DNA of 22,539 nucleotides from a virus: the UHGV virus genome UHGV-0046269; one strand, written 5' to 3'. The translations under genes and the position numbers were made by a program. The notes beneath the pieces were generated by a model. That model did no database searches, was not told the DNA's origin, and saw only the letters and a program-made list of their open reading frames with translations. Shown piece by piece: positions 50 through 19,974 of the stretch. Every line of letters starts with the position of its first letter. The first letter of the stretch is position 1.

Positions 50-1168
50 TCAAATAACCAACTTAACCCATTCCTGACCTCGAGTATCGTTATAGCGATC
101 GGTGGTTGCCTGGACTTTATGTCCTAGTAATGTTTTTGTATCGATACCCTGTGCACGGTACAGCCGTTCTGATAGAGAGCGTTGTTCATGAAATGTTGGC
201 GAAGTTTTTCCTGCTGGTGGAATTATCCCAGCCAGATCCCGTGCTTTGGCAAAGTAGTCGCTCAGGTTGTCTTTACTCATCGGCTTCGGTTGTTTCTGGT
301 GCCGACTATGGATTAGATATGGACTTAATATTCTGTCTCGGCACCCATCAATAACTTCTTTTAACGTTATCCCAATGGCATCACAGCGTAGTGTAAGCGG
401 TAACGCCAGACGCATTCCGGTTTTTCCCTGGGTGATATGCAAGTGTTCGTTCCACACATCTGAAAAACGCATGTGGCAAATGTCATCACGGCGCTGACCA
501 GTAACAATCGCAAGAAGCATTGCGTTACGGATAAAGTGTTTTTCAGGCGTTGCATTGTAAATTTTTTGCCAGTCTTCCATGGTGAGCCTGGCTCTGGTTA
601 CTTTAGGGATCGGTTTACGGGTAGCCTCCGGAGGATTCCATCCAGGAGGAACTTCCCCTGCATGCTGTGCTTCTTTATAAATATCAACCCATAATCCACG
701 ATTTACTCTCGCTGTGCTGACCATGTCTTTATCCAGCCACTCATCCAGTATTAATGCAAAGTCTCTTACTTCCAGTTCTTTCAATGGGTGGTTTCCCAGA
801 CGGGAAACCAGGTATGCAGCCATTCGAGTTTTTTCTTTGTGAGTTGTAGCTGCAATATCTCCATTTTTCAGTCGCGTGTCCTGTATTTTCAGATATCGAT
901 CAACCCATGCCTTTAATCTGATACCCCGACGTTTTGTTGCTGACGGACTTTCATCAATTTTGCGCATGAAATATTCAGCTTCTGCTGCAGCTATTCGCTG
1001 ATTGGCTGTGGAAGCGATTTTTTCTGCCTTACCTTTGTCTGTTCCGAGTCCGTGAAATTTTCCAGTCACAGGATTTTTATACTGGTAGTAAACTCTGCCA
1101 GTTCTGCGATCAAACTTTTCGTAAAGACCGGCTACGTCAGTGCTGTTTTTTCGTGGCCTCGGTGACAT
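50..1168 (-). CDS. int: Phage integrase, tyrosine recombinase (lambda Int-like)
   Basis: 372 aa ORF; N-terminus (YYQYKNPVTGKFHGLGTDKGKA) resembles the lambda Int arm-binding region and the C-terminal half reads as a tyrosine-recombinase catalytic domain; sits at the prophage edge beside an excisionase-like gene. Confidence 0.88.
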   Translation of the reverse strand: MSPRPRKNSTDVAGLYEKFDRRTGRVYYQYKNPVTGKFHGLGTDKGKAEKIASTANQRIAAAEAEYFMRKIDESPSATKRRGIRLKAWVDRYLKIQDTRLKNGDIAATTHKEKTRMAAYLVSRLGNHPLKELEVRDFALILDEWLDKDMVSTARVNRGLWVDIYKEAQHAGEVPPGWNPPEATRKPIPKVTRARLTMEDWQKIYNATPEKHFIRNAMLLAIVTGQRRDDICHMRFSDVWNEHLHITQGKTGMRLALPLTLRCDAIGITLKEVIDGCRDRILSPYLIHSRHQKQPKPMSKDNLSDYFAKARDLAGIIPPAGKTSPTFHEQRSLSERLYRAQGIDTKTLLGHKVQATTDRYNDTRGQEWVKLVI

Positions 1169-1467: not shown

Positions 1468-3909
1468 TTAAAAATCAGCCTGACTCGGGATCAGTTTTTG
1501 CCAGATAACTGAAACGTATTTTGCCTGGTAACGGGCGTCATCAAGTGCATTATGGCGCTCACCTTCGAATGGAATAGCCGTTCTGGCATCGAAGTCTATG
1601 GCTTTCCCCAGCTCAACGATTGTGCGTACATCGCGATCGTTGTAGTAACGCCACGGGCAGGGGATCCCCTGCCGTTCGTATGAACGGCGCAAAATCGTGT
1701 TGTCGAAGTTGGCTCCATTTCCCCAGACCTGAACAAAAAATTCACCGGAGTTTTCGTCGATAAATTCCCGCAATTGTAACAGTGCATCATCTAACGGGAT
1801 TTCATCGGTCATAATGGCAGATTGCGCTTCGCGTGATTGCTTAAGCCACCATTTAATGGTGTCCCGATCAATGACTCCGCCAGCAGTTTCCAGATCGATA
1901 GTCTTACTAAATTCCGGTCCCATATCTCCGGTTTGCGGATCGAAAAATATTGCACCTATTGAGATGATCGGGGCATCAGGATTTTTTCCCATGGTTTCAA
2001 GGTCGATCATTAGATGGTCACACGTCCTGCTGGTGGATGTGATTTCTTGATGACCGTTCACCTTAATTGAGTGATCTGCCGTCTCGCCAGTTTCATTATC
2101 GCTATCGTGATGCTGATTGCCGCCAGTGTTCTCCTTGTGTGGATGTTCAGCGCCTTCCATTTCCTCCGGATCATCTTCCTGAACTTCAACCTGATACTCT
2201 TCATCGAATGTTTCCTGGTATGTTGCGTCGCCCATCACCGCGCCACAATCAGGGCAGTTGCCGCCGCCGGTCTGACCGCAGGCGGTGCAGACTTTTTCCA
2301 CTTCCTGTTGCGCCACTGGTTCGGATTGTTTCGTTTCTGGCTCGTTTTGTAACGCATTTGGGCTGTTTTGTTCCGCTTTTTGGTCGTTCCGTTCCGATTC
2401 ATGCTGGTTCTGGTTCACAGAATCGCGAGTCTGGATCCCTTTGACCCATTTCGGATCATTAGGGTCGCTAATCCCCTCAACAAATTCACCACGCGATACA
2501 GCAAGTAACTTATCGGCGTCAGGCTGGCTGATATTGGCTGCCTGCATAATTTTGTTTACTTCGTCAGCGGTGACTTTTACTTGGTTAGCGGAACTCACCT
2601 GCGACTGAGCATCCAGCGACTGCGCGTTCTGGCCATGTTCAGTTGTATCCGGTTCCATTGTTTCAGTTGTTGCCTGTTCACCTGCCATTGCGTCAGATGG
2701 TTGTGGTTTTTCTTCTTCTGTTTCACGCTCAGTAACCACCTCGCGGTTAATTTCTTCCAGGATATCTTTTTCCGGCGTATGCCGGGCAGCTGTGAGAGTT
2801 TCCTTGCTGGGGTTCTCGTGATCAGTTTCCGTCAAATAGGCGTTGATATACCCCTGAAGGCGTCCCGGGTAGTGATAAAATTCAGGGTGTGCGCTTCGGA
2901 TAAGTGCAAAAATAGCGGCGCGGGAATAGTCCAGAATACCCGGGGTTGCACGAAGTGCTGCGGACCATTCTTTGAACGGACTTTCTTTGTTCAGGACTAC
3001 TTCTTTTGCGCGACGATAAACGCTGCCCGGAATTTCATAAATATTAAAATCCATCGGAAGTGTGGCTGCTGCAATCTCCACATCCAGTGTGTCGAGGGTG
3101 TGTACTAAATTCGGATTGCGATCGGTTTTGTTCCCACCGCCAGCATTAGCACCGGAAGCCGTGCGGGTGATGCGTGAAACACGATTTCCTTTCATCCACT
3201 CTTTTGTCAGCAAACCCCGATCAGTGTAGTCAGCGTCTAGGTATGCTTCGAAAAAAGCAGTTATTAGTCCCAGGTCTGAATTACCAGGATTAGGGAAAAC
3301 TTTGTCAGTGTCACGAACCAGTTTGTGGAGGTCGCGAATCTCCAGCGAGTCGAGCAGACTGGTTTTATGCGAAATAGCCAGGGCAGTAACAGCCGGTAGT
3401 TCTTCAGCCCGTGCAATGTGTAATGCCTGGAGTTCGTCGCGTGAAACGTGCGTTACTGGTTTTTCGCTGCCGTGTTGAGCAAGCCAACGAATGGGCAGTT
3501 CCTGACCGGAGACAGGCAGAAGCATGCTCTCCTCAATCTCAGTCATGGCTTCGCCGTTGATGTTGGTATTGTCAGTGCTGGCTGGTTTGTCCTGAACAGA
3601 GGGGGAAGGGCCGATAAATGTCATTGTGATGCCATCTTTCCCGCCTTTTTCATAGCGGTTGCAGAATTCAGTATCAAACACGCCTTCTGGCGGAAGGTCG
3701 TCAACAACGGGCAAATTGACGCGGACGGGTTTTTTAAAGTCGTCTTCATCATAATCGTTGTCATCCATTGCGGTAATGCAGCGGGAGATTGCAACAGATA
3801 ATTTTTTTGCTGTAGTCCAGTAAAAACCACCTTTAATTCCTAGGCGTTTTCTTACTTTGTCATTTTTTGCTTCGCAATATAGTGCAAATTCTTCTTTATC
3901 AGTGCTCAT
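1468..3909 (-). CDS. Large phage protein with C-terminal DEDDh 3'-5' exonuclease domain (exodeoxyribonuclease VIII-like in related prophages)
   Basis: 813 aa ORF. C-terminal region carries exonuclease motifs I (MIDLETMG), II (VWGNGANFD) and III (HNALDDARY). A long acidic low-complexity middle region contains a CxxC...CxxC pair ([16 protein letters not shown]). Occupies the position of exo/bet in lambda. Confidence 0.7.
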
Positions 3910-4548: not shown

Positions 4549-4606
4549 AAAAAGGGCGGCAGAGCAGTCACGGAGTAAAACTGATACCGCCAAACGTCAC
4601 CAGAAA
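4549..4606 (-). ncRNA. dicF: DicF small RNA (antisense regulator of ftsZ and other mRNAs) with intrinsic terminator
   Basis: Reverse complement of 4554..4606 reads TTTCTGGTGACGTTTGGCGGTATCAGTTTTACTCCGTGACTGCTCTGCCGCCC, which matches the DicF sequence as I recall it, followed by a T-tract (4549..4553). Located between ydfC and dicB as in Qin. Confidence 0.85.
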
Positions 4607-8817: not shown

Positions 8818-9174
8818 ATGGAAATAAAACCAGAGGATGAGTTAAGCAATATCGTTTTATTTCCGGTAAAAGAGGATGACCCTCGTAATCAGGTTAATTT
8901 TCTTTATGAGCCATCGGAAAGACCATATTGTCATCACGCCTCTGTCCGGGTTGACGAAAAAGAGCGTCAGGTCCGCTGTAAAATCTGCGGTGCAGTTGTG
9001 GAGCCATTTGACTGGATGCTCTCTGTGGCGAAAAGAGAAACCAGACTGGCAGATGATGTAAGGCTCTTGCGTCAGGAGGAGCGGGAAAGGCGAAAAAATA
9101 TAGAAAAGCTAATTCAGATTGAGCGTAACGCGAAAGCGCGGATACGCAGGGCGACAAAATCCAGAACTGAATAA
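8818..9174 (+). CDS. Hypothetical protein with putative zinc ribbon (CHH...CKICG)
   Basis: Internal start MEIKPEDEL preceded by AAAGGAGAGGAG RBS; 118 aa; Cys/His cluster YCHHASVRVDEKERQVRCKICG. The track ORF begins upstream at 8761. Confidence 0.5.
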   Translation: MEIKPEDELSNIVLFPVKEDDPRNQVNFLYEPSERPYCHHASVRVDEKERQVRCKICGAVVEPFDWMLSVAKRETRLADDVRLLRQEERERRKNIEKLIQIERNAKARIRRATKSRTE

Positions 9175-9256
9175 TTAAATTTAGCTCTGTTAAAAATTTA
9201 ATCCTTAACCGGAGGGATTTCTGCACCCTCAGAATATCAGGAGGCCGCCCGAAAGG

Positions 9257-9360
9257 NNNNNNNNNNNNNNNNNNNNNNNNNNNNNNNNNNNNNNNNNNNN
9301 NNNNNNNNNNNNNNNNNNNNNNNNNNNNNNNNNNNNNNNNNNNNNNNNNNNNNNNNNNNN
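9257..9360. other. Assembly gap (104 N) splitting a GNRA-type hairpin
   Basis: Run of N. Left flank ends CCGCCCGAAAGG and right flank starts CCGAAAGGGCGG; both are parts of one 16-mer hairpin CCGCCCGAAAGGGCGG with an 8-nt overlap, consistent with a scaffold join. Confidence 0.7.
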
Positions 9361-9379
9361 CCGAAAGGGCGGTAGTTAA

Positions 9380-9562
9380 ATGCGAAAGTTTAAAATAATT
9401 ATTGAAACGGGAATAGCCGGTGGAGATTTCGAGGATGAATTCGAAGTGGATGATGATGCGACGCCTGATGAAATACATGACGAAGCAAAAGATATTTTCT
9501 TTAACTACTGCAATTACTCATATCACGAAATAAAAGACGAAGAGGAAGAACAAAATGGCTGA
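9380..9562 (+). CDS. Small acidic hypothetical protein
   Basis: 60 aa ORF, very acidic (DFEDEFEVDDDATPDEIHDE...DEEEEQNG); its stop overlaps the next ORF start. Confidence 0.4.
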   Translation: MRKFKIIIETGIAGGDFEDEFEVDDDATPDEIHDEAKDIFFNYCNYSYHEIKDEEEEQNG

Positions 9563-9731
9563 TTTTGGTTCAACTAAATACAACGTCAGTTTTGAAGAAT
9601 GGCATGAACTGTTAATGGACTATGCAGAGTTACGTGGTGGCAGTGCTGCTGATGCTGAAGCATGGCGTGATGATTATGAAGCAGAAAAAACTCCGGTCGA
9701 AGCATATTGTGATGAGTGGGGCGATGAATGA
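9555..9731 (+). CDS. Small hypothetical protein (58 aa)
   Basis: Hand translation MADFGSTKYNVSFEEWHELLMDYAELRGGSAADAEAWRDDYEAEKTPVEAYCDEWGDE; start overlaps the previous stop (ATGGCTGA) and its stop overlaps the next ORF start, suggesting a coupled small-gene array. Confidence 0.4.
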   Translation: MADFGSTKYNVSFEEWHELLMDYAELRGGSAADAEAWRDDYEAEKTPVEAYCDEWGDE

Positions 9732-10044
9732 GCGAGGTTAATTATCAGGAAGGGCATGAAACGGCGGGGCAAGCAAAAACAGTGGCATGGCGATATCGCT
9801 ACGTGAAAAAAAAGGCGTTACGGACTTTCAGGGGAAGTAGTGGTCTGGTGACTGGAAATATGTACCGAAAAAAGAGGATTGTAACGACAGGCCGAACTAT
9901 GAAATTCAGGCCTTATTCACTGCCCCGCCAGTCCCGGTTACATCAGAAGAACTGGTTAAAGCTGTGCACTTTTATGAACAACTAAAACGCGAAAATCCAC
10001 CAGCATCCGGAAACCTGATTACAGATTCCCAGATAAGGCAATGA
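9728..10044 (+). pseudogene. Gene interrupted by a frame change at poly-A tracts (frameshifted gene, sequencing error, or programmed -1 frameshift)
   Basis: Track ORF 9728..9985 turns into basic low-complexity sequence after an A8 run (9806..9813). A protein-like reading frame without any start codon runs 9841..10044 in the -1 frame (…EIQALFTAPPVPVTSEELVKAVHFYEQLKRENPPASGNLITDSQIRQ). A heptamer A_AAA_AAG sits in the zero frame at 9868..9874. Confidence 0.3.
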
Positions 10045-10214
10045 GCTACCTGGCGCAGAACGGGCTGATAAGTATGGGGAATGTTTTACGATGAATATTT
10101 AGACTAAAGAGTTTGTAACGCTATGTAAGTGATTTTTTCTGGTTTAGATATTTATATATCCGGCCAAATTGAGGTGTGTTTAAATGTAATTGCACATTGA
10201 TTGTAGGAGGAATA

Positions 10215-10394
10215 ATGAAAAACGCATTGCAGTTTTTGTTTGTTGCGTTCTGGTTGTTCGTATCATGTATGCCCATCATCTTCACAGCAAGGTATATGGA
10301 AAAAGTTGATGTTTTGATATTAATATTTGGATATATAAATGCCCTTTTTTTAGGGGTGTTCATGGCGGTCATGTGCATTGAATACTGGCGGTAA
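10215..10394 (+). CDS. Small hydrophobic membrane protein (two predicted TM segments)
   Basis: 59 aa from MKNALQFLFVAFWLFVSCMPIIF...LFLGVFMAVMCIEYWR, preceded by an AGGAGG RBS; strongly hydrophobic. Confidence 0.45.
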   Translation: MKNALQFLFVAFWLFVSCMPIIFTARYMEKVDVLILIFGYINALFLGVFMAVMCIEYWR

Positions 10395-10652
10395 ATACAG
10401 CGAACGCCATTGGTTTAGTTGGATATTTACTGTGCCGGACAAAAACGGTTTGCGGGGAAATCTTAGTTAAGTAGAATGACTGCGGGTGCTTGAGGCTATC
10501 TGTCTCAGGCATGAACACCAAAAGGCAGATAGAGAAAAGCCCCAGTTAACATTACGCGTCCTGCAAGACGCTTAACATTAATCTGAGGCCATATCTATGC
10601 GACACATAGAGATTAGCCTCTTACGGACCGAAAGGTCAAGGAGAAGCAGGCT

Positions 10653-10808
10653 ATGAAGCAGCAAAAGGCGATGTTAATCGCCCTGATCGTCATCTGTTTA
10701 ACCGTCATAGTGACGGCACTGGTAACGAGGAAAGACCTCTGCGAGGTACGAATCCGAACCGGCCAGACGGAGGTCGCTGTCTTCACAGCTTACGAACCTG
10801 AGGAGTAA
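10653..10808 (+). CDS. hokD: Hok/Gef-family type I toxin (HokD/RelF-like)
   Basis: Hand translation MKQQKAMLIALIVICLTVIVTALVTRKDLCEVRIRTGQTEVAVFTAYEPEE (51 aa) fits the Hok/Gef family. A short upstream ORF (10597..10656) ends with TGA overlapping the hok ATG (mok-like coupling). Confidence 0.85.
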   Translation: MKQQKAMLIALIVICLTVIVTALVTRKDLCEVRIRTGQTEVAVFTAYEPEE

Positions 10809-12608: not shown

Positions 12609-12965
12609 ATGCTCATAGATTTGGTTTTACCTTACCCGCCGACGGTGAACACTTACTGGCGACGCCGTGGCAGCACATATTTTATCTCGGAGGAGGGAAA
12701 GCGTTATCGCCGGGCTGTGGCGCTTATTGTTCGCCAGCAGCAGCTGAAATTAAGCCTGTCCGGAAGGCTGGCGATAAAGGTGATTGCAGAGCCACCGGAT
12801 AAGCGTCGTCGCGACCTGGACAATATCCTGAAAGCACCGCTGGATGCGCTGACGCATGCGGGAGTGTTAATGGACGATGAGCAGTTTGATGAAATCAATA
12901 TCGTTCGTGGTCAGCCAGTATCTGGTGGACGTCTGGGGGTGAAGATTTACCCCATAATGCATTAA
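12609..12965 (+). CDS. rusA: Holliday junction resolvase RusA
   Basis: 118 aa; PYPPTVNTYWRRRG and DKRRRDLDN...DAL motifs correspond to the RusA family (compare DRRRRDLDN in E. coli RusA). Confidence 0.88.
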   Translation: MLIDLVLPYPPTVNTYWRRRGSTYFISEEGKRYRRAVALIVRQQQLKLSLSGRLAIKVIAEPPDKRRRDLDNILKAPLDALTHAGVLMDDEQFDEINIVRGQPVSGGRLGVKIYPIMH

Positions 12966-12979
12966 GAGCAGGTCAAAAA

Positions 12980-13801
12980 ATGAAACTGGAAGATTTACCG
13001 AAATACTACTCCCCAAAATCCCCTGGCCTGACCGATGCATCGGCCTCAACGTCAAAAGATGCGCTGAGTATCACTGATGTGATGGCCGCGCAGGGCATGA
13101 CACAGAATCGGGCTGAGATGGGTTTTTCTGCGTTCCTGGGGAAAATGGGCATCAGTATGAATGACAGGGCGCGGGCAACAGAATTACTGGCAGATTATGC
13201 ACTCAGTCGGTGCGATCGTGTGGCGGCGTTGAGAAAACTTCCGGCAGAAATAAAACCGGTAGTGATGCGCATTATGGCTTCGTACGCTTTTGAGGATTAT
13301 GCCCGCAGCGCAGCGAGTAAAAAGCAGTGCCCTTGTTGCTATGGGGAAAAATTTATTGAAAGCGTAGTTTTTACAAACAAGGTCCAGTATCCGGATGGTA
13401 AGCCGCCGGTATGGGCAAAGTGTACGAAAGGTGTGTATCCGTCTTACTGGGAAGAATGGAAAAAAGTCAGGGAGGTGGTAAAAGTTGCCTGTCCGGAGTG
13501 TGGCGGAAAGGGTGAGGTTTCCACCGCCTGTAAGGATTGCCGTGGGCGTGGTGTCGCCATTCACCGTGAAGAGTCGGTAAAACGTGGTATGCCTGTTATC
13601 AGAGACTGCCAGCGTTGTGGTGGTCGTGGCTATGAAAGACTACCATCAACGGAGGTATTTAATGCTATATGCGAGGTGACAAACCAGATAACACGCGCGT
13701 CATGGGAAAAAACAGTTAAGAAATTCTATGATGCGCTGGTGACCCGGTTTGATATTGAAGAAGCATGGGCTGAGCGGCAGTTAAAAAAGGTAACTAGGTA
13801 A
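12980..13801 (+). CDS. Late-gene antiterminator Q-like protein (QuuQ-like) with multiple CxxC zinc-finger motifs
   Basis: 273 aa; position between rusA and the tRNA/lysis region is the canonical Q slot; contains CPCC, CPECGGKG, CKDCRGRG and CQRCGGRG motifs. Confidence 0.65.
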   Translation: MKLEDLPKYYSPKSPGLTDASASTSKDALSITDVMAAQGMTQNRAEMGFSAFLGKMGISMNDRARATELLADYALSRCDRVAALRKLPAEIKPVVMRIMASYAFEDYARSAASKKQCPCCYGEKFIESVVFTNKVQYPDGKPPVWAKCTKGVYPSYWEEWKKVREVVKVACPECGGKGEVSTACKDCRGRGVAIHREESVKRGMPVIRDCQRCGGRGYERLPSTEVFNAICEVTNQITRASWEKTVKKFYDALVTRFDIEEAWAERQLKKVTR

Positions 13802-13944
13802 CAAGGTTGATTTTTCCGGAATCTGTGGTAAATTCGTCATAACGATGGGCTTTTTATGCCTGACGTTAGAAGAGTTTCTACAACCCGCCGCCGAGCGGGT
13901 TTTTTATTGCGGAATTAATTACGGACCGTTATTATTCTGCTCCC

Positions 13945-14020
13945 GGCCCTTTAGCTCAGTGGTGAGAGCGAGCGACTCATAATCGCCAGGTCGCTGGTTC
14001 AAATCCAGCAAGGGCCACCA
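13945..14020 (+). tRNA. ileZ: tRNA-Ile2 (anticodon CAU, ileX/ileZ-like)
   Basis: 76 nt cloverleaf: acceptor GGCCCTT/AAGGGCC, D-arm GCTC...GAGC, anticodon loop CTCATAA, T-arm GCTGG-TTCAAAT-CCAGC, 3' ACCA. Close to E. coli tRNA-Ile2 as I recall it. Confidence 0.88.
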
Positions 14021-14027
14021 TCACATA

Positions 14028-14104
14028 CCGCCATTAGCTCATCAGGAAAGAGCGCCAGCTTTCGAAGCTGGTTGCGCGGAGTTCGGGTCCCCGATGGTGG
14101 TCCA
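14028..14104 (+). tRNA. argN: tRNA-Arg (anticodon UCG), argN-like
   Basis: 77 nt: acceptor CCGCCAT/ATGGTGG (one G-U), D-arm GCTC...GAGC, anticodon stem CCAGC/GCTGG with loop TTTCGAA (anticodon TCG), T-arm CGGAG-TTCGGGT-CCCCG with one A-C mismatch, 3' TCCA. Confidence 0.6.
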
Positions 14105-14117
14105 TTATCGGTATTCT

Positions 14118-14194
14118 GCGTTGTTAGCTCAGCAGGACAGAGCAATTGCCTTCTAAGCAATCGGTCAGTGGTTCGAATCCAGTACAACGCGCCA
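14118..14194 (+). tRNA. argO: tRNA-Arg (anticodon UCU), argO/argU-like
   Basis: 77 nt: acceptor GCGTTGT/ACAACGC, anticodon loop CTTCTAA (TCT), T-loop GGTTCGAATCC, 3' GCCA. Confidence 0.88.
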
Positions 14195-14304
14195 TATTCA
14201 TTCTTCCAGATTCCTTCCGGCAGAGCCTTATACTGGAATATACCTGGCTCAGGATATTGTTGAAAATATTATATGTTTGTCAAAAATAAAAGTTCTGTTA
14301 AGTA

Positions 14305-14658
14305 TTGATTGAGTGTTTGTTATACGGTCTAATGGTTTTTTCAGCATTAAATATTTATCATTCATATGGTGTGGGTAGAGTGAATATTGATGAGGCGTCG
14401 GGGTGTTTCATCCTTAGGCAGCGTATTGATATAGTCAATGCAGCACGAGCAAAGGCCTTCAGCCGTTTGACAGTTTTGTTTTGTACTCCTGATCGTCTTT
14501 CGGGAAGAGACGTTATTATTCTGAATAGTGATGCTATACAGAGGGTTAGCGATGAGTTCATGGTTGCTAATTCAGAATTATTTGCTCTTGTTCAGGAGTA
14601 CAACAGAATAGCCAGGACCTGTGGTATGGATGAACTTCGGATTACTCATCTGGGGTAG
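14305..14658 (+). CDS. Hypothetical protein in AT-rich cargo island (start uncertain)
   Basis: 117 aa track ORF; a GTG start near 14379 would give about 92 aa (MNIDEASGCFILRQRIDIVNAARAKAF...). AT-rich surroundings; no family recognised. Confidence 0.35.
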   Translation: MIECLLYGLMVFSALNIYHSYGVGRVNIDEASGCFILRQRIDIVNAARAKAFSRLTVLFCTPDRLSGRDVIILNSDAIQRVSDEFMVANSELFALVQEYNRIARTCGMDELRITHLG

Positions 14659-15052
14659 ATACATATCTGGATTATCACCTGTTACGGTAAAAAGTGATTG
14701 CTTACTGTTTTTGTGAATGGCATTGCAGCAGCCGGATAATGTCAGTGCTGGCTGACGGTGTGCTGGTGGCAGGTGTGGTGGTTGTTGCTTTTCCGTTGCT
14801 GAAAAAGAAAACGCCAGACTGTTAGCCGGGTATCAGTTAGCGGGAGAAATTTTTAAATACTTCACAATTCAGGCGGTTGACTGTTGTCTGGTTTGCGGGG
14901 AGTTTGTTAAAAGAAACTGGCATGGTGAATCCCCCTGTGCGGAGGGGCAATCAGCGAGTAGGTATATGGGATAATCGCGGATTCAGGTGCTGGTACTGAA
15001 TTCACCGGGAGGCACCCGGCACCATGCAATGGCACATAGCGCCACTCTCCAA

Positions 15053-15078
15053 CCCCTCTCCGGAGGGGCTGTTTATAT
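15053..15078 (+). terminator. GC-rich hairpin followed by T-rich tract (possible intrinsic terminator)
   Basis: CCCCTC-TCCG-GAGGGG followed by CTGTTTATATTGATTTT; a related hairpin CCCCT-GTGCGG-AGGGG lies about 115 bp upstream (14934..14949). Confidence 0.35.
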
Positions 15079-15105
15079 TGATTTTGTCAGATGTGAGTAA
15101 ACTCC

Positions 15106-15441
15106 TTATGGACTTTGTTGTTTTAGTCCATAAGGACATATTTGCAGAGTGCAACGGTTATTAAAGCATTCATTCAATACGTTATCTGTATTTGTAGGGC
15201 ATTCCTGGCTGTTTTTGATTAAATTCCAGAATGTTTTATTGAATGGTACTACGTTGTAAATGGTTACAGGTAGCACTTTGTTATTGAGCATGATGCCTGT
15301 GTGAGTCAGTGTAAATATACTTTCAGGAGGTAAGAAAGCATCCGATTGATACCAGATTATTAATTTTATTTTACTCCATATGACTGAAAAAGATATTCCG
15401 CATGATGGCTGGATAACTGTATCAATCACAATCCACTTCAT
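15106..15441 (-). CDS. Hypothetical AT-rich orphan protein (moron candidate)
   Basis: 111 aa ORF on the opposite strand to the flanking phage genes, AT-rich composition with AT-rich upstream region (15442..15690); Cys-rich C-terminal part ([26 protein letters not shown]). Confidence 0.4.
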
Positions 15442-15701
15442 TTGGTTTCCTTGTTTATGCCTTGCTGGTGATGTCCTGAAAAGTATAAATGATATTTTTG
15501 AATGTAAACCATAGAGCAGAATTATTTTTCTGATGTTGTTTATTGTTTATTTAAATGCAGGGTGGTTTATATCTCGTCTTGTAGTTTATCCATGCATATC
15601 TGCTTGATAATCAGGTTTTTATTTAAGGTATAGTTTTGTGTTTTTTCTGTATTACATGTCAGGTATTTTAAAGAATTATTTTTCAGATAGTGGAAAGAAC
15701 C

Positions 15702-15890
15702 ATGGCATTTAAACACTATGATGTTGTCAGGGCGGCGCCGCCGTCAGATCTTGCGGAAAAGCTGACACATAAACTGAAAGAGGGCTGGCAGCCGTTTGGT
15801 AGTCCGGTGGCCATAACCCCTTATACCCTGATGCAGGCGATTGCAGCAGAAGGTGATGTGGTGGTCAGTGGTGCAACTGAGCCGGAGTGA
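15702..15890 (+). CDS. Small phage protein preceding the lysis genes (DUF1737-like)
   Basis: 62 aa from MAFKHYDVVRAAPPSDLAEKLTHKLKEGWQPFGSPV; small genes of this type commonly precede holin genes in lambdoid prophages. Family call is from memory. Confidence 0.5.
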   Translation: MAFKHYDVVRAAPPSDLAEKLTHKLKEGWQPFGSPVAITPYTLMQAIAAEGDVVVSGATEPE

Positions 15891-16197
15891 TACTACGTCA
15901 TCGTACTGGCCCGGCATTCCAGGCCATAAAAGACAGTCTGGCAGTGGGACTAAATGCACTGACGCTGACGGATATTACCAAAAATGCAACGTATGGCGTT
16001 GAGATAGAAAGTCTGGCGCTGGAGATAAATGCACCGGCATCATCATAAAAAGTGAGCCAGTCAAATGGAAGGTATCGTTAAACTCACCGGTAGTGTCAGT
16101 GGGTCGTCTGAGACGCTTGCATGAGTTATCAGAGCCATCAGTAGTTAACTGGTGGCTTTTTTATTGTTGTCAGCTTCCGGATAACGGGAGACGGGGT

Positions 16198-16413
16198 ATG
16201 GACCAGATGGAAAAAATCACAACAGGTGTGTCATACACCACGTCAGCGGTGGGAACGGGCTACTGGTTCCTGCAGTTGCTGGACAGGGTTTCCCCGTCTC
16301 AGTGGGCGGCAATAGGCGTGCTGGGAAGTCTGCTGTTTGGGCTGCTGACATATCTGACTAACCTGTATTTCAAAATCAGAGAGGACCGTCGTAAGGCGGC
16401 ACGGGGAGAGTAA
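16198..16413 (+). CDS. S: Phage 21-type pinholin S (dual-start motif Met1/Met4)
   Basis: 71 aa from the internal Met: [71 protein letters not shown], close to phage 21 S as I recall it; two TM segments and a charged C-terminus. The track ORF begins upstream at 16093. Confidence 0.85.
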
Positions 16414-16417
16414 TTCA

Positions 16418-16762
16418 ATGACTCAAAACTATGAACTGATTGTGAAAGGGATCCGCAATTTTGAGAATACAGTTACGGTAACTTTAGCGTTACGGGACAA
16501 AAAACGCTTTGACGGTGAAATTTTAGACCTGGACATCTCGCTGGACCGTGTTGAAGGTGCCGCGCTGGAGTTTTATGAGGCAGCAGCCAGAAGGAGCATC
16601 AGACAGGTCTTCCTGGATGTTGCTGCCGGGTTATGTGAAGGGGATGAGCAGTCACCGGAAAAGCGCCCCATAATTTTAGAGGCGCAGGGTGTGTGGATAA
16701 CCTACAAAGGAAAACTGCCGGGAAGAATTACTGGTTCACTGAAGACTCCGCCGAAATGGTAA
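16418..16762 (+). CDS. Hypothetical protein inserted between holin and endolysin
   Basis: 114 aa ORF starting 5 nt after the holin stop. No lysozyme, spanin or other recognisable motifs. Confidence 0.5.
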   Translation: MTQNYELIVKGIRNFENTVTVTLALRDKKRFDGEILDLDISLDRVEGAALEFYEAAARRSIRQVFLDVAAGLCEGDEQSPEKRPIILEAQGVWITYKGKLPGRITGSLKTPPKW

Positions 16763-19272: not shown

Positions 19273-19683
19273 TTAGTGTGGAAACATTTGTGATGTGCTC
19301 TGTATGTTTTCAGTAAAGAGTAATGAATTATCAAAGGTATAGTAATATCTTTTTTGTTCGTGGATATTTGTAACCCACCGAAAAACTCCTGCTTTAGCAA
19401 GGTTTCTTCTGTATTCCTGAAATGTGATCTCTCTGGATTTCAGCTTATTAGAGGTCGTTTCTATAAGATGCCTATCCTTTGAAAATTTGACAGACACAAT
19501 GTTTTTTAGGCCCTTTAATAACACTGTATTATCATTTTTTAATACAATATGAACATTCTCTGTGGCTAAATAGTAAATGTAATGTGAGACATTGTGACGT
19601 TTTAGCTCAGAATAAAACCATTGATAGTTTAAATCGTTTCGAACTTTATCAAATATTTGTTTAAAAATGACTACCTGATCCAT
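19273..19683 (-). CDS. YbcV/YdfO-like protein (DUF1398 family)
   Basis: About 136 aa from [40 protein letters not shown]; AT-rich; sits after the lysis genes like ybcV in DLP12. An alternative start lies 5 codons upstream (19698). Confidence 0.6.
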
Positions 19684-19740
19684 AGATAAACCTTCCATGT
19701 GATATGAGGGGGCGTAGTCTGCACGATTATCTAAATTGCT

Positions 19741-19974
19741 TCAATCTGGTCTGACCTGTTTTCTGAGCAATTCAGTAATGTCACTCTTTTCTTTGTTTGC
19801 TTCAGGAGAAACTCTTTTTTCTGAGCACAGTCTCCGGCGGCAGGCTTCAATGACCCAGGCTGAGAAATTCCCGGACCCTTTTTGATCAAGAGCGATGTTA
19901 ATTTGTTCAATCATTTGGTTAGGAAAGCGGATGTTGCGGGTTGTTGTTCTGCGGGTTTTGTTCTTCGTTGACAT
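19741..19974 (-). CDS. Small ribbon-helix-helix-like DNA-binding protein
   Basis: 77 aa; basic N-terminus then RNIRFPNQMIEQINIALDQKGSGNFSAWVIEACRRRL, consistent with a beta-strand plus helix RHH fold (Arc/CopG-like). Confidence 0.45.
   Translation of the reverse strand: MSTKNKTRRTTTRNIRFPNQMIEQINIALDQKGSGNFSAWVIEACRRRLCSEKRVSPEANKEKSDITELLRKQVRPD

Follow-up and report, generated by a model that had tools for sequence, protein, structure and literature searches.

iraL and other known modules in the probable variable moron region of a lambdoid prophage with Shiga toxin phage-like gene order

The DNA analysed here is a stretch of 22,539 nucleotides (nt) from the virus genome UHGV-0046269; the whole stretch is called the window, and all positions count from its first letter. 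The window is a lambdoid prophage with an integrase (50-1168, minus strand), a CI-like repressor, the small RNA (sRNA) DicF, hok/sok, the antiterminator Q, lysis genes and a Nu1 terminase. Our subject is the interval 14200-15690, which an earlier interpretation made without database searches (the sequence-only reading) had taken for an AT-rich cargo island with two orphan open reading frames (ORFs) at the position occupied by stx in Shiga toxin (Stx) phages. Both ORFs are present, at 14305-14658 (plus strand) and 15106-15441 (minus strand), but they are not orphans: the first holds a member of the family phrog_2873 and the second is iraL, which encodes an anti-adaptor of RssB. The features of the locus are listed below, with names from the NCBI Prokaryotic Genome Annotation Pipeline (PGAP), lengths in amino acids (aa), the transcription start site (TSS) and the 5' untranslated region (UTR) where they apply.

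12980..13801, plus strand: Q antiterminator, 273 aa, with a zinc-ribbon/DnaJ-like insert (PF03589 Antiterm, 183 bits; PGAP 'antitermination protein', WP_000762890.1)
13807..13834, plus strand: putative late promoter pR', TTGATT, 16 nt, TGgTAAATT (read by eye; the position after Q and before the terminator matches the annotation of phage 933W)
13882..13908, plus strand: tR'-like intrinsic terminator, 7-bp GC stem (13882-13901) and T-run (terminator scan)
13945..14194, plus strand: tRNA trio Ile2 (CAT), Arg (TCG), Arg (TCT) (ARAGORN; Rfam tRNA matches; PGAP tRNA-Ile/Arg/Arg)
14380..14658, plus strand: phrog_2873 small protein, 92 aa from GTG 14380 (frame open from TTG 14305), predicted helical hairpin (PHROG match; ratio of nonsynonymous to synonymous substitutions, dN/dS)
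14694..14825, plus strand: DUF3927 small membrane protein, 43 aa, GTG start (PF13064, 95.6 bits, gathering score 25; PGAP WP_000562553.1)
14891..15080, plus strand: prophage sRNA of the STnc100/PasD family with a 3' intrinsic terminator (15053-15068 and U-tract) (Rfam RF02076)
15103..15136, minus strand: perfect 12-bp hairpin spanning the iraL stop codon (RNA fold of 15040-15145)
15106..15441, minus strand: iraL (c1429 / C_RS06710, WP_000871291.1), RssB anti-adaptor of the IraM family, 111 aa (100% DNA identity to CFT073)
15442..15574, minus strand: iraL 5' UTR (33 nt), TSS 15474 and promoter region sufficient for complementation (-100 to +33) (match to the published start; PMC4045071)
15575..15701, no strand: very AT-rich spacer between the iraL promoter and the start of nanS-p (composition)
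15702..16048, plus strand: internally deleted nanS-p (SASA sialate O-acetylesterase) pseudogene (PF08410, 62 bits; PGAP 'incomplete, missing C-terminus')
16198..16413, plus strand: class II holin S, where the cargo region ends and the lysis cassette begins (PF04971, 110.6 bits; PGAP coordinates transferred from the CFT073 record)

The product of the minus-strand gene matches NCBIfam NF007393 with 162 bits (cutoff 121) over residues 1-110 of 111 and thus belongs to this family. It is 62% identical to IraM of K-12 over 107 aa and matches the IraM structure 8twd in the PDB with E=9e-32; PGAP names it 'anti-adapter protein IraM'. The description of the ORF as Cys-rich is only mildly true (5 Cys in 111 residues). 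The gene, c1429 of uropathogenic E. coli (UPEC) CFT073, was recovered in a genomic-library screen and renamed iraL by Hryckowian et al. (mBio 2014, PMC4045071). In the same work the half-life of the stress sigma factor RpoS in log phase was ~5 min in the wild type and ~2.5 min in an iraL deletion mutant, IraL interacted with RssB's N-terminal domain in a bacterial two-hybrid test, and the transcription start was mapped by 5' rapid amplification of cDNA ends (5'-RACE), with sigma-70-like hexamers upstream. A fragment from -100 to +33 complemented the deletion, and the gene was commoner in UPEC, prostatitis and Shigella isolates (PMC4045071). According to later work, iraL is expressed more strongly in fur-mutant cells and upon a shift to 37 °C.

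The published 32-nt 5'-RACE sequence of iraL matches the window exactly and only once, on the minus strand at 15443-15474, which places the TSS at 15474(-). Read by eye, putative hexamers lie upstream of it (-10 TACTTT at 15480-15485, -35 TTTACA at 15503-15508). At the other end of the gene the segment 15040-15145(-) folds with -36.8 kcal/mol (z = -5.3), a value reached by none of 200 shuffled sequences, and the hairpin over the stop codon is likely to be the 3' end or terminator of the iraL transcript.

A Megablast search with 13800-16100 against 5,426 complete E. coli genomes showed the region to be 100% identical in CFT073 and many other UPEC genomes, among the perfect matches being SK1144, clone D i2/i14 and ZH063, and a match covering at least 80% of the query was present in 859 genomes. 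Pieces of the locus occur in about 16-27% of complete E. coli genomes. The identity with CFT073 includes the coding sequence (CDS), the TSS and the upstream region of iraL, and the comparison of the window with CFT073 revealed no sequence difference in the gene or its promoter; the neighbours Q, tRNAs, DUF3927, DUF1737 stump and holin are also the same. The sole difference over 13800-16100 is IS200C, which is located directly after the T-run of tR' in CFT073 only (window 13903-13909, CFT073 record 2610-3315), and the window therefore comes from a strain other than CFT073, possibly a close relative. In CFT073, IS200C stands between pR'/tR' on one side and the tRNAs with the late genes on the other; the window is without this insertion.

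Since iraL has its own mapped sigma-70 start and lies on the opposite strand, it is not expressed from the Q-dependent promoter; the lysogen expresses it as a self-promoted unit that runs antisense to the late operon. The sequence-only reading had expected expression from the Q-dependent late promoter, and for iraL this does not hold, as late read-through would be antisense to it. The expectation of a moron site with regulatory cargo, on the other hand, was borne out by iraL, which is carried between the tRNAs and the lysis genes. The gene has the attributes of a classical moron, namely a promoter with a TSS from published mapping, a terminator-like 3' hairpin (z = -5.3) and a deviating GC content (0.324 vs 0.471). 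A late cargo of the stx type would be located on the late strand between pR'/tR'/tRNAs and STnc100, whereas iraL is on the minus strand and downstream of STnc100; only phrog_2873 and DUF3927 (14380-14825, plus strand) are placed in that way.

The sRNA gene STnc100 is the landmark for these positions. The RF02076 covariance model matches with 125.9 bits (gathering score 47) over model positions 1-206 of 206, and the paired GC-rich hairpins that had been noticed from the letters (14931-14947, 15006-15020 and 15053-15068) are indeed there, their identity being sharpened to the helices and terminator of this one sRNA. The single-sequence fold of STnc100 is no better than that of shuffles (z = -1.26); the assignment therefore rests on the covariance model, and expression of the sRNA is taken from published homologues. 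Antisense to STnc100, PGAP annotates a partial 'hypothetical protein' pseudo-CDS at 14910-15035(-), and phage 640R1 has an annotated 70-aa minus-strand ORF there. The pseudo-CDS is probably an annotation artefact over a structured sRNA.

Phage backbones were mapped by blastn and Rfam, with the following orders downstream of Q:

933W: tRNAs, stx2AB, STnc100 (3278-3483), AsxR (3485-3537, minus strand), nanS-p
Shigella phage 75/02 Stx: stx1AB, STnc100, AgvB (minus strand), nanS-p
PPwrbA_EH2201: tRNAs, 57 bp, STnc100 segment, nanS-p

Downstream of pR', STnc100 keeps the same place, after a moron CDS and before the nanS-p esterase, in 933W, 75/02, PPwrbA_EH2201, JLK-2012 and 640R1. This conserved position has been described (PMC12370729; bioRxiv 10.64898/2026.05.13.724894), STnc100 being located 75 nt downstream of stx2 (PMC12370729), and Zhu et al. 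related STnc100 to PasD, which is upstream of the sialate esterase. Since STnc100 follows stx directly in Stx phages, the slot equivalent to stx is 14195-14890 (slot A). The next segment, 15081-15700 (slot B), corresponds in the alignment to the position of the anti-sRNAs AsxR (933W) or AgvB (75/02) and is occupied here by iraL, convergent with STnc100. Thus, the sequence-only reading was right that Q, pR' and the tRNAs are followed by a moron region, but only slot A equals the stx slot, STnc100 marking its downstream edge in 933W and 75/02, and iraL is in the slot after it. Only position and orientation are common to iraL and the anti-sRNAs, for which no covariance match (RF02703/RF02702) was found at E<=1 in 13700-16200. 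The 3' hairpin of iraL was also considered as a leftover AsxR/AgvB terminator; this was rejected because there was no alignable similarity. The position of iraL is essentially fixed: among the 5,426 complete E. coli genomes, STnc100, iraL and DUF1737/SASA are contiguous in 1381 of the 1428-1446 with an iraL cassette.

A close parallel already described is the region of the Stx2 phages 933W and Sp5 (933W/Sp5; Tree et al. 2014, PMC4104026), in which the tRNA trio (92%), STnc100 (EcOnc27), the 5' end of nanS-p (84%) and the holin (93%) follow in the same order and a minus-strand regulatory element expressed in the lysogen is convergent with STnc100, as in the window. In contrast to 933W/Sp5, the window has no stx and contains phrog_2873 and DUF3927 in slot A, its Q is of a different type and its nanS-p is internally deleted. 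Slot B of the window is a protein gene (iraL, 620 bp), whereas that of 933W/Sp5 is an anti-sRNA of 53-60 nt without sequence similarity to it.

The backbone would thus read Q - pR'/tR' - ileZ/argN/argO - slot A - STnc100 - slot B - nanS-p - S R Rz, and the interval 14200-15690 is very probably the variable moron region of a lambdoid prophage of the type of the potB island of UPEC CFT073, in which four known modules are located on a backbone like that of Stx phages. The locus, chiefly iraL, is real cargo that is already known and nothing new, and therefore its interest is low: iraL, STnc100, DUF3927 and the Q-tRNA-moron architecture have been described, and the DNA is identical to a reference UPEC genome. 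In the iraL paper the context in CFT073 is given as a genomic island only, with no position stated for the gene in relation to STnc100, to the slot of stx or to that of the anti-sRNAs (PMC4045071); what can be added is that iraL is located exactly in the slot of the convergent sRNA.

As shown for the identical CFT073 sequence, iraL would be transcribed in the lysogen from a sigma-70 promoter of its own, starting at 15474(-). IraL would bind the adaptor RssB at its N-terminal domain and so keep RpoS from being delivered to ClpXP, and RpoS would be stabilised, with higher levels in log phase. The genes in slot A would be co-transcribed with the late operon. On induction, Q-modified polymerase starting at pR' would read through tR' and on across the tRNAs and slot A, past the STnc100 terminator, and would then run antisense across iraL toward the lysis genes, so that induction would oppose iraL expression.

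The locus is a mosaic with respect to the phages known. One of them, mEp460 (mEp460_ev081), is 98% identical over 12901-15028 and 99% over 14195-15028, and resembles the window in Q, tRNAs, phrog_2873, DUF3927 and most of STnc100. The other, vB_EcoS-640R1, is 97% identical over 14862-16757 and 96% over 14862-15700, with an anti-adapter gene there, and shares STnc100, the iraL-type anti-adapter, DUF1737 and the holin; unlike the window it has two STnc100 copies and only one tRNA. An alignment of the region as ordinary sequence of non-Stx lambdoid phages, named beforehand as what would speak against a cargo island, was thus found only piecewise (mEp460 99%, 640R1 96%). The two matches overlap inside STnc100, and neither phage carries the whole combination; the window therefore combines two module sets by recombination, joined within STnc100, which probably serves as a recombination linker between them. 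The STnc100 copies of 640R1 are in tandem at 3061-3254 and 3530-3718 (138 and 132.5 bits), upstream of its iraL-type gene.

Downstream of iraL, 15475-15700 has a GC content of 0.274, and homology to Stx-phage backbones resumes at 15701. The nanS-p gene that follows consists of two stumps, the N-terminal DUF1737 part (15702-15890) and a C-terminal part (15887-16048, 53-aa ORF). Compared with yjhS of JLK-2012, 15709-15921 is the 5' end and 15906-16048 the 3' end, ~1.49 kb between them being lost and the two frames no longer in register.

In slot A, the plus-strand ORF matches the phrog_2873 profile with E=5.5e-57 over residues 1-92. For the 92-codon core, Nei-Gojobori dN/dS is 0.29 against L008 and 0.24 against L009, two homologues that are 58-63% identical, vs ~0.9-1.4 in the other two frames, and third-position changes predominate in the phrog_2873 frame (54 vs 36 and 33). 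The search with the full 117-aa ORF returned close copies and 55%-identical full-length homologues, and an exhaustive profile search yielded relatives of 91-95 aa that are 21-40% identical and have conserved motifs; all of these begin at GTG 14380 of the window. The homologue in prophage L009 has a GTG at the same site with the Shine-Dalgarno sequence AGGAG before it. The extension upstream of GTG 14380 has a dN/dS of 0.60 and is disordered in the AlphaFold2 (AF2) model of the 117-aa ORF (mean confidence, pLDDT, 71.5; helices 28-60 and 75-106; residues 1-23 below 50). The start of the gene is probably GTG 14380, and judged by these comparisons the ORF 14305-14658 is a real protein-coding gene with no function assigned. 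Foldseek with the AF2 model against the PDB found nothing at E<=0.001 and only generic coiled coils, the best hit of a profile search against PDB sequences was no better than E=0.06, and Pfam and NCBIfam gave no match for the 117-aa ORF. The sequence-only reading had proposed homology and structure searches for both ORFs; these identified iraL and placed the other ORF in phrog_2873, for which the fold searches were uninformative. It had also named a lack of conservation and coding signal in both ORFs as evidence against it; this is not what was found, iraL being characterised and phrog_2873 having the low dN/dS given above. A tblastn search of 50,697 phage records with the phrog_2873 protein and with P0023, a distant homologue, found mEp460 only. 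The PADLOC defence models gave no match for phrog_2873, DUF3927, IraL, or the TerB-like and AraC-like neighbours in L009.

In other prophages phrog_2873 is part of a cassette with the order (AraC-like regulator) - phrog_2873 - TerB-like protein of 141-165 aa - DUF3927 of 50 aa - holin, in which DUF3927 comes after the TerB-like gene, the two overlapping at the end of the latter. This TerB-like gene is lacking in the window, where 99 bp stand in place of ~700 bp of L009, and the DUF3927 match spans profile positions 7-53 of 53, so that the protein is N-terminally shortened from the usual 50 aa. Because of the missing TerB-like gene and the DUF3927 protein cut to 43 aa, slot A looks like a reduced phrog_2873/TerB-like/DUF3927 cassette. 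DUF3927 is named 'TciB-like' in phage JLK-2012, and a literature search for tciA/tciB returned Trypanosoma genotype papers only. Some prophages, namely L008 (164-889), L009 and L010 (both 3142-3870), encode a 241-242 aa regulator of the AraC family (HTH_18) directly upstream of their phrog_2873 homologue. In the last two, genes for an N6_N4 methyltransferase and for DUF2335 come before this regulator in the stretch from Q to the holin, showing that this cargo region is highly variable.

Several observations weigh against parts of this picture. The putative pR' scores 8/12, under the threshold of the promoter scan, and was assigned by eye. We only infer that the late transcript silences iraL by antisense, and the transcription and function of iraL in the particular strain are taken from the identical CFT073 sequence. 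At slot A, PGAP never calls the phrog_2873 ORF in ~1186 genomes and annotates nothing at 14203-14690 in the genomes sampled, and the phrog_2873 Shine-Dalgarno sequence is weak in the window, being poor in comparison with AGGAG in L009. The TerB-like gene that separates phrog_2873 and DUF3927 in relatives is missing, either through deletion or because the lineage never had it; DUF3927 begins with GTG and is without its first 6-7 residues. Thus, phrog_2873 and the shortened DUF3927 may be a decaying remnant and not working cargo. Possibly, then, everything in the interval besides iraL and STnc100 is decaying debris, the two small genes being non-functional like the adjoining nanS-p, which is clearly a deletion pseudogene. 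We consider this a doubtful but serious possibility. However, the phrog_2873 frame is intact, in-frame indel variants of the protein exist (P0008, P0015), the segment is kept at >=95% identity in 1186 genomes, and there is purifying selection between lineages, such selection being no proof of function for the copy in the window. It is highly improbable that 14305-14658 is non-coding, an untranslated late-leader RNA or a regulatory RNA. The lack of Pfam and NCBIfam matches, the TTG at the beginning of the longest form, the missing PGAP annotation and a terminator-like hairpin inside the ORF (14494-14512, terminator scan) would fit such an RNA, but the dN/dS values of 0.24-0.29 vs ~1 in the other two frames, the excess of third-position changes, the 91-95 aa homologues with conserved motifs down to 21-40% identity, the phrog_2873 match and the confident two-helix core of the AF2 model argue for a protein, and Rfam has no match within the segment.

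Very unlikely, too, is that the whole 1.5 kb is an stx-like cargo for virulence, defence or regulation that is expressed from the Q-dependent late promoter on induction. In favour of this, Q, a pR'-like promoter, tR' and the tRNA trio also seen in 933W all lie upstream of the interval, and the plus-strand genes phrog_2873 and DUF3927 are oriented for late co-transcription. The main gene iraL, however, is on the minus strand, where a sigma-70 start of its own has been mapped, is active in log-phase cells without induction (PMC4045071) and is located past STnc100, outside the stx slot, and no PADLOC defence family matches any protein tested. The reading as a moron region with a self-promoted iraL can be extended to a wider proposal, in which slot B is a dedicated minus-strand site for lysogen cargo with an induction switch and phrog_2873 is an overlooked gene; taken jointly, these two statements are speculative, and we would call them unlikely. 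Slot B would then hold host-reprogramming cargo, AsxR/AgvB in phages of enterohaemorrhagic E. coli and the protein anti-adaptor gene iraL in UPEC and Shigella prophages, and Q read-through would turn iraL off by antisense transcription or polymerase collision, coupling induction to the loss of RpoS stabilisation. As for phrog_2873, a conserved small gene (92 aa) under purifying selection has gone without RefSeq annotation in roughly 1,200 of the complete E. coli genomes. In the wider proposal it would be a real gene, systematically left unannotated and present in ~22% of complete genomes, and it might work together with the TerB-like and DUF3927 proteins.

The base composition of the interval is uneven. 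With a GC content of 0.392 vs 0.471 in the whole window, 14200-15690 is ~2.1 standard deviations under windows of the same size, which agrees with the AT-rich island of ~1.5 kb that had been proposed; its centre, with 0.49 in DUF3927 and 0.55 in STnc100, does not. The AT-rich blocks are 14195-14379 (GC 0.319) and 15081-15700 (GC 0.324), and no other 620-bp segment of the 22.5 kb is as AT-rich as the latter. The interval is not the lowest of its size, as 9091-10581 has a GC content of 0.386; this second AT-rich stretch contains small acidic ORFs and the hok/sok region.

Upstream of the interval, Q followed by the Ile2/Arg/Arg trio is present as upstream of stxAB, in accordance with the sequence-only reading. 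The individual tRNAs are located at 13945-14020 (CAT), 14028-14104 (Arg TCG) and 14118-14194 (Arg TCT), the CAT tRNA being Met according to ARAGORN and Ile according to PGAP. The trio is 92.3% identical to ileZ-argN-argO of the Stx2 phage 933W, where stx2AB follows directly. By analogy with 933W, we infer that 13807-13834 is pR'. The leader between pR' and tR' (13834-13905, plus strand) shows a sub-threshold Rfam match to isrK, the late-leader sRNA of Gifsy-1 (18 bits vs a gathering score of 50), and this likeness may just reflect the common promoter-terminator layout. A Trp_leader match at the pR' leader has 25 bits and is under its Rfam gathering score.

K-12 has a related arrangement. IraM (YcgW) is encoded next to the e14 prophage and belongs to the same family as IraL, both being RssB anti-adaptors; IraM is induced by stress and contacts both domains of RssB, while for IraL binding is confined to the N-terminal domain and action is in log phase (PMC4045071). 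The pair iraM-ycgX (DUF1398) parallels iraL and a DUF1398 gene at 19273-19698 of the window, with ~70% nucleotide identity and the same relative orientation. The aligned segments are 15122-15444 and 19556-19757 of the window and 1211.7-1213.2 kb of K-12. Unlike iraL, K-12 iraM has no adjacent STnc100, tRNAs or lysis genes within the 8 kb inspected. From the alignment, iraM-ycgX looks like the same prophage segment minus a 3.8-kb lysis cassette.

Elsewhere in the window, a run of masked bases (N) at ~9250-9365 gives the ORF 8894-9478(-) ~35 X residues in translation. The hok/sok-type toxin-antitoxin module is located at 10484-10808, with an Rfam sok match at 10484-10655(+) of 106.7 bits and a Hok-like 51-aa ORF at 10653-10808(+), and the copy of the DicF sRNA lies in the early region at 4554-4605 on the minus strand (RF00039, 76.7 bits).

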